36,660 nucleotides of DNA from the UHGV virus genome UHGV-0183637; one strand, written 5' to 3'. The notes below the pieces were generated by a model. That model worked only from the letters and a program-made list of their open reading frames with translations, was not told where the DNA came from and did no database searches. Within the stretch, counting starts at the first letter, position 1; every line of letters starts with the position of its first letter. Source of the DNA: a virus. Below, piece by piece: positions 34,137 through 36,660 of this stretch. The position numbers and the translations under genes are program-made.

Positions 34137-34709
34137 ATGAATATGGTCGATTTATTTCGCGCCATGCTGCCGCCTGTCAGTTATGACCCGAACGGGAATT
34201 ATATTTCTGCAGAGCTGGCAGCCGAGGCTGACGTCATGGAGGCCGTGAAGGCATCAGCGGCGAGCGTTCTGGCACAAATCACCCCGTTGCAGGCATCGAT
34301 GACGCTGTCCGACTGGGAGCGCGTGTACGGTGTTGTCCCCCGTGAAGGTGCCACACAACAGGAGCGGCGGCAGAATATCCTGGTAAAAATGGCAGCCACA
34401 GGCGGGCTGTCAATCCCTTACTTTAAGAGCCTTGCCGCCAGCCTGGGCTATACCATCACCATTACGGAGCCGCGACCATTCCGGGTGGGGATAAACCGCT
34501 GCGGCGACCGTCTGCTGATACCGGAAATCCGCTGGGCATGGCAGGTCAATGTTATCGGAACAAAAACGCCGGTCTACCGTTTCAGAACGGGGGCATCGGC
34601 AACCGGCGAGCCGCTGACGGCCTTTGGTGAATCCATTTTAGAAAACACATTTAAAGACCTTAAACCGGCTTTTACAGACTGTTATTTCACATATGAGGTG
34701 GAGGAATAA
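34137..34709 (+). CDS. Tail protein (Mu gp48-like, DUF2313)
   Basis: 190 aa; between the baseplate J-like and tail fibre genes. Confidence 0.75.
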   Translation: MNMVDLFRAMLPPVSYDPNGNYISAELAAEADVMEAVKASAASVLAQITPLQASMTLSDWERVYGVVPREGATQQERRQNILVKMAATGGLSIPYFKSLAASLGYTITITEPRPFRVGINRCGDRLLIPEIRWAWQVNVIGTKTPVYRFRTGASATGEPLTAFGESILENTFKDLKPAFTDCYFTYEVEE

Positions 34710-35590
34710 TGCAGAATTTAATGACTCCGGTTAATACACCGGACAAGTTATTTCATGATGGTGACCCGACTCAGGGGATAGAGGGAACCATTGTTACCGC
34801 TGAATATATGAATAATCATCAGGAAGCAACGCGCGATTTGCAGCAGGAGGTGATTAACGTCCTTAAAGAGGCTGGCGTAACCCCGGATCCGAAAAAACAA
34901 AACCAGCTGGTTGAGGCGCTGACCTCGTTTATTGGCCAGAAAGTCCCGGATGCATCGCTGACGCAAAAAGGCGTAGTGCAGCTTAACAGTGCTGTTAACA
35001 GTGAATCAGAAACAGAAGCAGCCACGCCCAAAGCGGTAAAAATTGCGATGGATAACGCAAATGCCAGACTGGCAAAAGACCGTAACGGCGCAGATATCCC
35101 GAATAAACAATTGTTTCTGGATAACATCAGCGGTGTGCCGAAAGCGCGTAAGGTCAACGGCATGGCCCTGACTTCGGATATCACCATCAACAGCATCAGC
35201 GGCAACGCCGGAACGGCAACCCGCCTTCAGACGGCCCGCAGGATTAATAATGTGCTCTTTGACGGCTCCGGCGATATCACGATTTCTGCGGGAATGTCAC
35301 AAACTGAAGGTGACAACCGTTACCAGCAAAAAAACACGGCGTCAAAAGCCGGTAATGGCTGGTTTAAGGACACGTCCACCGGGGTGATTATTCAGTGGGG
35401 GTATCTCGGCAATGCCGGTGCCGGGCTGACGTTTCCGATATCATTTCCGTCAGCATGTACCAGCATCACTATTACCAACGCATATACCCGTGCTGATTAC
35501 TCTATTTCCCTGAAATCATTATCAGCAGCAGGTGCGACATTCAACAGCGAGAATAACGGCGTTATGTACTGGACAGCGATAGGGTATTAA
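34709..35590 (+). CDS. Tail fibre protein
   Basis: 293 aa; contains ...SETEAATPKAVKIAMD..., the ATPKAVK-type motif common in enterobacterial phage tail fibres. Confidence 0.8.
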   Translation: MQNLMTPVNTPDKLFHDGDPTQGIEGTIVTAEYMNNHQEATRDLQQEVINVLKEAGVTPDPKKQNQLVEALTSFIGQKVPDASLTQKGVVQLNSAVNSESETEAATPKAVKIAMDNANARLAKDRNGADIPNKQLFLDNISGVPKARKVNGMALTSDITINSISGNAGTATRLQTARRINNVLFDGSGDITISAGMSQTEGDNRYQQKNTASKAGNGWFKDTSTGVIIQWGYLGNAGAGLTFPISFPSACTSITITNAYTRADYSISLKSLSAAGATFNSENNGVMYWTAIGY

Positions 35591-36024
35591 TGATGACTAT
35601 TTATTTCAGCCCATCAACAAACGGTTTTTATCATTCTGACCTTCAGAATGATTATGAAAATGCGGGAACGTGGCCTGGTGATTTACAGAAAATCACGGAT
35701 GAAGAATATCAGAGACTGTTACAGGGTCAGACTGACGGTTTTATTATTGTATCCGGCGAAAACGGATATCCGGTATTAAAAGAACCCGTAATTAACTGGC
35801 AGCAGAAAGCGGAAACGCAACGCCAGCACCTGCTGGCTGAAGCAAGGGAAATCACCTCCGACTGGAAAATCGAGCTGGAGCTGGGCACCATCAGCGATGC
35901 AGACAAGGGACGCCTGACACAGTGGATGATGTATATCAGGGAGGTAAAGGCGCTGGATTTAAGTCAGGTCAGTGATAAATCTTCCTTTGATTTAATTCAG
36001 TGGCCGGAAAAACCTGACGTGTAA
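35590..36024 (+). CDS. Tail fibre assembly protein
   Basis: 144 aa; start overlaps the fibre stop; N-terminus MMTIYFSPSTNGFY typical of fibre assembly chaperones. Confidence 0.8.
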   Translation: MMTIYFSPSTNGFYHSDLQNDYENAGTWPGDLQKITDEEYQRLLQGQTDGFIIVSGENGYPVLKEPVINWQQKAETQRQHLLAEAREITSDWKIELELGTISDADKGRLTQWMMYIREVKALDLSQVSDKSSFDLIQWPEKPDV

Positions 36025-36032
36025 AACAATAA

Positions 36033-36058
36033 CGGTCGCTTTCTGGCGACCGTTTTCA
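36033..36058 (+). terminator. Rho-independent terminator
   Basis: CGGTCGC-tttctg-GCGACCG followed by TTTTCAGTT. Confidence 0.6.
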
Positions 36059-36071
36059 GTTCAGAGGTTTT

Positions 36072-36660
36072 ATGTCTGTATTGATCTCAGGGGCGCTTAT
36101 TAATGGCGCTGGCGTTCCGATGGCGGAATGCAAAATTTATTTAGATGCACTGGTTAATACCAGTGAAGTGGTTATTGAATCATTTGCGGTTATTGAAACC
36201 GATGCGGCGGGACAGTATGCCTTTGAGGCGCAAAAAGGCAAATACACCGTACACATCAAGCAAAAGAACGGCCCCAAGTGCTGTGTGGGTGACATTTCGA
36301 TTTACGACGATTCAAAGCCCGGCACACTGAATGATTTTCTGACCGCCCCCGATGAAGGCGACCTCAAACCCGACGTGGTGAAACGCTTCGAGGAAATGGT
36401 GGCGCAGGCGCAGCAGAGCGCGGAAGCGGCAGCGGAAAGCGAGCGGCTGGCAGAACAGCACGTTACTGATGCGCAGAAGATTAAGGATGACTGTCAGACG
36501 CTGGCGAATAACGTACAGCAGAATGCAGAGGCCGTTGCCGAAGACAAAAAGCAGGTGGCGTTACTGGCATCATCAGCTTCGCAGGATGCGGCCCGCGCAG
36601 AGCAGGCCGTTAAGGACGCAGACAAAATCGTCGATAAGGCTGTTGATAAACTCGGTGAAG
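36072..36660 (+). CDS. Side tail fibre protein, N-terminal part (lambda Stf-like; continues beyond window end)
   Basis: ATG 36072, open to the window end; MSVLISGALINGAGVPMAECKIYLDALVNTSEVV...IYDDSKPGTLNDFL parallels the lambda Stf N-terminus, followed by an Ala/Gln/Glu-rich repetitive region. Absent from the ORF track because no stop lies in the window. Confidence 0.8.
   Translation, partial: MSVLISGALINGAGVPMAECKIYLDALVNTSEVVIESFAVIETDAAGQYAFEAQKGKYTVHIKQKNGPKCCVGDISIYDDSKPGTLNDFLTAPDEGDLKPDVVKRFEEMVAQAQQSAEAAAESERLAEQHVTDAQKIKDDCQTLANNVQQNAEAVAEDKKQVALLASSASQDAARAEQAVKDADKIVDKAVDKLGE

Follow-up and report, generated by a model that had tools for sequence, protein, structure and literature searches.

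Tandem Mu S-type and Stf-like tail-fibre modules at the right end of a Mu-like prophage in the virus genome UHGV-0183637

The virus genome UHGV-0183637, a stretch of 36,660 nucleotides (nt) that was analysed as a whole and is called the window here, carries a Mu-like prophage, and its positions 34,137 to 36,660 are most likely the distal end of the late (tail) operon of this approximately 40-kb transposable element. Our analysis revealed two receptor-binding modules in tandem: a Mu S-type tail fibre (fibre 1) with its assembly chaperone, and a second fibre (fibre 2) that begins with the N-terminal domain of the lambda side tail fibre Stf and is followed by a gene of the DUF4376 family. In the explanation that we favour, with a probability of roughly 0.7, these are two complete modules inside the element; fibre 1 would serve the baseplate and contraction, and fibre 2 would be a collar-anchored accessory fibre for first contact. 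The features concerned are listed below (aa, amino acids; E, expectation value).

34137-34709, plus strand: gp48 baseplate wedge protein, 190 aa (Pfam Phage_Mu_Gp48, E 1.2e-30)
34709-35590, plus strand: fibre 1, Mu S-type tail fibre, 293 aa (Pfam Phage_fiber_2 and Gp53-like_C)
35590-36024, plus strand: assembly chaperone of fibre 1, 144 aa (Pfam Caudo_TAP, PF02413; E 2.4e-22, 79.9 bits against a cut-off of 22.1)
36031-36054, plus strand: intermodule hairpin with a 10-bp stem, AACGGTCGCT-TTCT-GGCGACCGTT, then TTCAGTTC
36063-36067, plus strand: AGAGG ribosome-binding site of the Stf-like gene, read from the sequence and conserved in the alignment of the Mu-like class
36072-36660, plus strand: 5' part of fibre 2, 196 codons without a stop before the window end; collar domain (about residues 1-95), then a linker, then a shaft rich in Ala, Glu and Gln

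The first module has the composition of the Mu S/U module. The gp48 protein is 28% identical to Mu gp48 (BLASTP, E 2e-14), the fibre 1 gene follows directly, with the gp48 stop overlapping the fibre start at 34709, and a Caudo_TAP protein is encoded downstream of the fibre. Over residues 44-160, fibre 1 shows 45% identity to Mu S/gp49 (E 1e-30), and its Pfam matches are to Phage_fiber_2 (E 2e-21, residues 83-123) and Gp53-like_C (E 2e-13). The initial annotation, which had described a Mu-style fibre with an ATPKAVK motif and its assembly protein at 34709-36024, is borne out by the Pfam families and the identity to Mu S; the motif occupies residues 105-111 (nt 35021-35041). Towards its C-terminus, fibre 1 has matches to the fibre tips of R-type pyocins (6CXB, E 3e-8) and to AP22 gp53 (4MTM, E 3.5e-4). 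Among sister prophages, similarity in fibre 1 is limited to the first 110-240 aa or so, its proximal part being conserved with the chassis and its distal part exchangeable. The exact chaperone sequence was found on 14 public contigs. Since fibre 1 keeps the Mu gp49 proximal region and the gp48 gene, and has a pyocin/AP22-like tip, it is probably the contraction-triggering baseplate fibre, and gp48 is expected, by analogy with Mu, to be its docking partner.

The second module starts at the ATG at 36072, not at 36073. The N-terminus of fibre 2 belongs to PF08400 (phage_tail_N; E 1.7e-49 over residues 1-134, with 167.7 bits where the cut-off is 26.6), and a stretch of 123 aa shows 40% identity to lambda orf-401, which represents the N-terminal part of Stf (E 1e-30). 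It also matches the solved collar domain of Ur-lambda Stf (residues 1-94; 9E7M/9MGH) with E 6e-17 over residues 1-92, and the Stf N-domain fold can be regarded as settled because the sequence matches a solved structure. The parallel with lambda Stf that had been drawn for the last gene is therefore confirmed. A weaker match, to the collar spike gp40 of Vibrio phage XM1 (7KJK_A3, E 3e-6, residues 2-189), spans the domain and the helix region. The Phage_fiber_2 repeat is present in fibre 2 too (residues 238-277 in the sister copy L002; “AATPKAVK” in L004), so that ATPKAVK, proposed initially as a lineage mark of fibre 1, is not lineage-diagnostic.

In the sister copies L001-L003, the gene after fibre 2 encodes a DUF4376 protein (E 1.5e-16; 192 aa in L002). 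No Tfa-type (Caudo_TAP) chaperone was found behind fibre 2 in these copies; the same position is occupied by this different family. DUF4376 is listed as a tail-fibre chaperone in the Alteromonas phages V22 and A5 (PMC10579305). The distal part of fibre 2 is mosaic, with 45-47% identity to E. coli phage fibres, including those of Av-05, Rac-SA53 and SerU-LTIIb, and 42-43% identity, over a shorter stretch, to the S fibres of P7 and the P1-like phage RCS47. Distal parts differ between otherwise near-identical prophages, and such exchange is typical of a receptor-binding protein in use.

The full-length Stf-like gene of L002 contains a direct repeat of 236 nt (11308-11543 and 12490-12725, 79% identical, 1182 nt apart), a tandem duplication of a fibre segment of approximately 394 aa. 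Many assemblies break inside the Stf-like gene, which fits the 236-nt internal repeat and the similarity to other fibre genes. Several show such breaks or N gaps (L004-L008), and this may also be the reason for the window's end.

Comparison of copies placed both modules within the element, whose left end in the window is as follows.

1117-1260, plus strand: left end of the Mu-like prophage, starting TGTGGGGTAGTGATCAATTCTGGGCGG, with repeated CAATTCTGGGCGG-like motifs

The copies L001 (E. coli OkiPb01701), L002 and L003 share a common sequence up to ...CCCAGAAAAAAACGCGAAGTTACA and diverge completely after it; their alignment sets a Mu-type right end ...CGCGAAGTTACA about 80 bp past the DUF4376 stop. 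This is approximately 3.8 kb past 36025-36071, the position suggested by the initial annotation. The right end lies after DUF4376 in L001, L002, L003, L017 and L019, and all five right flanks are different. In OkiPb01701, fliH is cleanly split by the element, with fliH halves on both sides and both fibre modules inside (left junction ...GTGATTG/TGTGGGG; right junction GTTACA/ATTGCTTCG). The left end in the window was located through the same genome: homology with the OkiPb01701 prophage begins exactly at TGTGGGG, and the flanks differ. As in transposable phages, the ends are TG...CA (left TGTGGGG, right GTTACA) at unrelated sites, tal in the window and fliH in L001. The canonical Mu target-site duplication is 5 bp. 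The OkiPb01701 element, the single fully resolved insertion, is bordered by a 4-bp ATTG repeat (L095 at about 7625-7635; L001 at about 17045-17056), and the expected 5-bp duplication was not found there. We conclude that the Stf-like gene and its chaperone gene are inside the transposable unit because the right end lies past DUF4376, the flanks differ and fliH is split.

These junctions bear on the possibility that the Mu-like element ends between 36025 and 36071 and that the Stf-like gene is part of another prophage, or of a remnant, next to it. Such a boundary would suit the hairpin and the 47-nt gap between the modules, and Stf-type genes are common in lambdoid prophages. However, the right junctions past DUF4376 refute it for the sister copies, the split fliH encloses both modules, and the 47-nt gap holds nothing resembling terminal repeats. 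We regard this possibility as almost certainly wrong.

The Stf-like gene is intact beyond the window. Window positions 34000-36660 are 100% identical in L004, L006 and L008 and 99.8% identical in L002, L005 and L007. In L006, the contig ends after 687 codons of the open reading frame (ORF) of the window allele, which is still open there; the ORF of L004 runs across a scaffold gap to a stop, after which DUF4376 starts. The ORF is 1045 aa long in L002 and about 960-1045 aa across the identical or 99.8%-identical copies. In the set of related loci, 66 of the 68 complete ORFs with an Stf N-domain (Stf-N) look intact (422-1061 aa), and truncated alleles are rare (L082, 227 aa). The suggestion that the ORF might be truncated or a pseudogene just past the window was rejected, since identical or near-identical copies carry an intact gene. 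For the collar domain, the ratio of nonsynonymous to synonymous substitution rates (dN/dS) points to purifying selection: comparison with sister Mu-like prophages gave 0.07-0.10, and comparison with other classes gave 0.18-0.24.

The order fibre, chaperone, Stf-N fibre and DUF4376 recurs on at least four tail chassis, namely Mu-like, phiP27, Rac-SA53 and lambda-like, and these four classes are independent. We surveyed 80 IMG/VR loci that are close relatives of the window's Stf N-domain; this collection is redundant, and its counts are not independent events. The chassis included 33 Rac-SA53-like, 14 phiP27-like and 4 lambda-J type loci and 11 of the window's Mu-like type. A fibre-assembly gene ends at most 67 nt upstream of the Stf-N start in 71 of the 80 loci, and a DUF4376 gene lies downstream of the Stf-N gene in 49. 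In phiP27 (L54-L57) and Rac-SA53 (tail1-tail4), the tail cluster likewise ends with these four genes in this order. The layout has stood in annotated genomes for years and is no one-off mosaic; of the mosaic proposed in the initial annotation, the different ancestry of the two anchors and the added module hold, and its being special to this prophage does not. Our literature search found no functional study of the tandem layout or of the phiP27 or Rac-SA53 fibres, and no description of the layout in a Mu-like transposable phage.

In their first 100 aa, the Stf N-domains of the Rac-SA53 and phiP27 classes are up to 100% identical, and the identity with the lambda-J class reaches 94%. Outside the four fibre-cluster genes, no BLASTP similarity was found between phiP27 (L011/L132) and Rac-SA53 (L012/L131) in head, neck, tail or baseplate proteins. 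Since Stf-N is near-identical where the other virion proteins share nothing detectable, the anchor appears to tolerate very different chassis. The Mu-like class has an Stf-N subtype of its own, with at least 94% identity inside the class and 60-69% to the other classes. An Stf-type anchor is not specific to lambdoid phages.

Two tandem Stf-type fibre genes were observed in lambda-like contigs with J and lom upstream (L026 6709-12334, L034 7055-10765, L054 and L082). The first fibre has a lambda-type N-domain, 88-100% identical to that of lambda, and is followed by tfa or a tfa fragment; the second has a Rac/phiP27-type N-domain, with DUF4376 behind it in L026 and L082; the contigs L034 and L054 stop short of that point. 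A single tail would need to accommodate two different collar domains in such prophages.

We infer that the two modules of the window are co-expressed and that fibre 2 is present in virions. In the mechanism that we propose, the conserved proximal part of fibre 1 would dock, as six trimers, on the gp48 wedge of a simple baseplate, and its exchangeable tip would probably bind lipopolysaccharide and trigger sheath contraction. In Mu, the N-termini of six gp49 trimers sit on a loop of gp48, one trimer per loop, and the gp48-docked gp49 couples receptor binding to baseplate opening (PMC11915804). Fibre 2, of approximately 1000 aa, would have a shaft resembling a coiled coil between the collar domain and a variable distal part that binds the receptor; its own chaperone would be DUF4376, whose gene immediately precedes the right end of the element. 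The collar domains would most likely ring a six-fold tail component, from which the long fibres 2 would project outwards, make the first reversible contact with the cell, and broaden or speed adsorption. Two precedents exist for such a ring. The collar of Ur-lambda is built from twelve Stf N-domains, surrounds the gpV/gpM junction of tube and tip and carries four trimeric side fibres (PMC12617516). The myovirus XM1 has six gp40 trimers attached to its neck by a homologous N-domain, after which a coiled coil follows (PMC10457771).

Several observations weigh against this explanation. In a contractile tail, sheath and baseplate would bury the docking site known from lambda, the junction of tube and tip, which makes the neck, or some other ring that is exposed, the more plausible place. 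When the gp36 and gp37 neck proteins were searched against PDB sequences, no similarity to the neck proteins of XM1 emerged: the gp36-like protein of the window matches Mu gp36 (9KHX) and no XM1 chain, and the search with the gp37-like protein gave no PDB match. To place the mount at one precedent or the other is therefore guesswork. In addition, scans of the window and of L016 detected no sigma-70-like promoter upstream of module 2 above the shuffled expectation, and the intermodule hairpin could reduce or block transcription into module 2.

The hairpin lies in the 47-nt spacer between the chaperone end and the Stf-like start. It folds with a free energy (dG) of -21.5 kcal/mol (z -3.0), its T tract on the plus strand is weak (TTTTCAGTT), and a terminator consensus scan flags only the minus strand. 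The structure postulated as a terminator between the modules can therefore be called only terminator-like. Sister Mu-like prophages have another hairpin at the same intermodule position (L016 9963-9980, also L019, L027 and L085), GCCGCC-AGCA-GGCGG followed by TTTTAT, which meets the terminator consensus; the assembly gene of these prophages is lambda-Tfa-like and not of the type in the window. The hairpin travels with the assembly-gene cassette. It is absent from phiP27 and Rac-SA53, in which the intermodule gap is 24 nt. It may be an attenuator, or a fossil operon end that predates module 2.

If the hairpin silenced module 2, the module could be silent or decaying cargo outside the virion. 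Such a fate would accord with the presence of a terminator-like hairpin in both chaperone cassette types of the Mu-like class, with the promoter scans, and with the rare truncated alleles such as that of L082. However, the low dN/dS, the intact ORFs, the retention of the DUF4376 gene behind the fibre gene, the conserved ribosome-binding site and the active exchange of distal parts, as for a receptor-binding protein in use, all argue against this reading. We consider silent cargo very unlikely.

A different mounting can be envisaged, in which fibre 2 branches off fibre 1 or its chaperone as a branched fibre and there is no tail collar. Rac-SA53 and phiP27 share only the fibre cluster, yet their Stf-N domains are up to 100% identical, and module 1 is the only shared candidate partner at the sequence level because their virion proteins are otherwise dissimilar. 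Module 2 is, moreover, nearly always directly behind a module 1. Against this, the solved homologues dock on tail or neck rings and not on other fibres, the module-1 partners vary widely (lambda Stf/Tfa in lambda-like contigs, Mu S-type here), and in Mu-like prophages the Stf-N subtype tracks the chassis while the fibre 1 tips vary. The tolerance of the anchor for different chassis favours a self-assembling ring with loose partner needs or, with less likelihood, docking on module 1. A branched fibre is, in our judgement, unlikely.

A more general form of the collar proposal can be put forward tentatively: the Stf-N fibre and DUF4376 may be a portable add-on cassette that self-assembles into a collar ring on a generic six-fold component, and on a Mu-like phage the ring may sit at the neck, as in XM1. 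Were this so, the cassette would fit virion chassis whose proteins are otherwise without detectable similarity, namely Mu-like, phiP27-like and Rac-SA53-like tails as well as lambda-like siphovirus tails that already have their own Stf, and a transposable phage would gain constitutive long “whisker” fibres instead of G inversion.

The place of the pair in the element raises the question of how the two fibres relate in use. In Mu, the interval from gp48 to the right end contains the G segment, gin and com/mom. No invertase, no opposed S'/U' copies and no inverted repeat longer than 19 nt were found between gp48 and the right end of L002, and the window contains no invertase gene and no long inverted repeats; the absence of S'/U' copies and of an invertible segment, which had been stated for the window, extends to the complete fibre region of L002. 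In the explanation that we favour, the tandem pair takes the place of the invertible G segment of Mu, and both fibre types would be made together, not alternately. The fibres might, as proposed initially, be independent alternatives, each sufficient for different hosts, as a simultaneous dual specificity in place of G inversion. This accords with the position of the pair in the place of the G segment, the lack of an invertase and the use of the same slot for host range in Mu-like relatives, by gin inversion in Morganella (L103) and by an SGNH hydrolase in Klebsiella. In contrast, the gp48-docked position that triggers baseplate opening in Mu is taken by fibre 1 only (PMC11915804), the Ur-lambda Stf speeds adsorption through OmpC while the central fibre is still required for infection (PMC12617516), and for collar-anchored fibres a link to the contraction trigger is not known. 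Full independence of the fibres is doubtful, although we leave it some weight. With respect to the division of labour, sequential two-step adsorption is at least as likely as the dual receptor specificity that the initial annotation suggested.

Relatives in other genera indicate when module 2 was gained. A search of a species-representative genome collection returned no Escherichia copy and only distant relatives, which served as an outgroup. An Stf-N gene within 10 kb downstream of gp48 was found in none of the 34 cross-species relatives, including those in Buttiauxella (78% identical) and Intestinirhabdus (75%). As the cross-genus relatives are without module 2, the module was added in the Escherichia branch. 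The region behind the first fibre differs among these relatives. Intestinirhabdus (L098 10573-11505) has a single fibre followed by host conjugation genes. Buttiauxella (L097) has one fibre and an assembly protein; behind this module, at L097 12649-17143, lie an ORF that weakly resembles a reverse transcriptase, with a score under the Pfam cut-off, and a 1283-aa ORF with only a sub-threshold Pfam hit, and these ORFs may be accessory or defence cargo or host DNA. A Klebsiella Mu-like phage (L096 9089-11077) encodes a 662-aa SGNH/GDSL hydrolase in the slot after the first fibre, and the Morganella relative (L103, about 11600-13500) has a gin-type invertase and an inverted assembly gene there.

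The arrangement would work like lambda Stf combined with the Mu S fibre; its nearest genomic matches are phiP27 and Rac-SA53, and its nearest structural analogue with a contractile tail is XM1. With the Stf/Tfa system of Ur-lambda it shares the PF08400 collar domain, an alanine-rich shaft, the Phage_fiber_2 repeat, a dedicated chaperone gene next to the fibre gene and a mosaic distal part. Unlike Ur-lambda, it has a contractile Mu-type tail in which the gpV/gpM site has no exposed equivalent, DUF4376 instead of Tfa (Caudo_TAP), and its Stf-like fibre as a second fibre behind a baseplate fibre. With Mu S/U it has in common the transposable way of life, the TG...CA ends, a fibre gene after gp48, the 45% identical proximal part and Caudo_TAP; it differs in having no S'/U', gin, inverted repeats or com/mom, and an Stf-type module fills the space to the right end.

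phiP27 and Rac-SA53 have the same four-gene order, and their Stf-N domains are 64-76% identical to that of the window; in contrast, both are integrase-type, and their baseplate proteins are unrelated (Rac-SA53) or distant (phiP27, 23-42%). Vibrio phage XM1, likewise a small myovirus, combines a simple baseplate of the Mu-like kind with two sets of receptor-binding proteins (the collar spike gp40 and the baseplate spikes gp18), and its gp40 has an Stf-like Ig-like N-terminal domain and a coiled coil; however, the distal part of gp40 is a tailspike, and the gp40 gene lies away from the baseplate genes. Small myoviruses with two fibre sets of unknown relationship have been described: Jilinvirus HeidiAbel (Gp15-Gp17) and Wifcevirus of the BASEL collection (PMC11990801). 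HeidiAbel and Wifcevirus, together with the long and short fibres of T4, resemble the present case in the order fibre, Tfa, second fibre and in the successive use proposed for the fibres (PMC11990801); HeidiAbel and Wifcevirus have another anchor type and are lytic or facultatively temperate and not transposable.

The remainder of the window is an ordinary Mu-like prophage with repressor, ner-like, Mu transposase, AAA ATPase, DUF3164, GemA, Mor and holin genes, followed by the later genes, namely head genes, gp36, gp37, sheath, tape measure and gp43-gp48. The Pfam families of GemA, Mor, gp36, gp37 and gp48 were detected, and at the left end the genes for the MuA-type transposase and the MuB-type ATPase adjoin the repressor and ner-like genes, as in Mu-like phages. 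Further features are the following.

2517-4559: Mu transposase ORF (homologous E. coli region annotated “Mu transposase C-terminal domain-containing protein”)
4578-5471: MuB-type ATPase ORF (homologous E. coli region annotated “AAA family ATPase”)
33054-34133, plus strand: gp47 (Baseplate_J)

Window positions 1-1116, left of the element, hold the host genes tal and tkt, that is, the start of the transketolase gene and the 3' part of the transaldolase gene, both on the minus strand, and are about 91% identical to every E. coli genome. The transaldolase gene is disrupted by the prophage, the left end at 1117 lying inside the gene. Because the flank is only about 91% identical to E. coli, the host is an Escherichia-like species other than E. 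coli. A megablast search of deposited phages gave no DNA-level match to the Mu-like tail; four partial hits all fell in the Stf-N part. By gp47 protein, the closest deposited phage is a Klebsiella Mu-like phage (50%). In L003 (12749-20435), the Mu-like copy adjoins P22-like ant/arc/mnt genes of another prophage. In L019 (12269-14000), phiP27-like fibre and assembly genes begin about 200 nt past the right end, and a further Stf-N start is located at 19864.

The two-fibre layout is real, and it is a fairly ordinary host-recognition arrangement. For annotation, it means that an Stf-like gene beside a Mu-like tail belongs to that phage and is not a lambdoid remnant, and that contig breaks in an Stf-like gene are assembly artefacts from fibre repeats. 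The near-identical Stf anchors on dissimilar chassis make it testable how one anchor suits both contractile and non-contractile tails, and the answer would be useful for engineering the host range of phages or tailocins with plug-in fibres. Among Mu-like phages, at least three solutions for host range at the right end can be distinguished: G inversion, a second, enzymatic receptor-binding protein, and a tandem Stf-type fibre.

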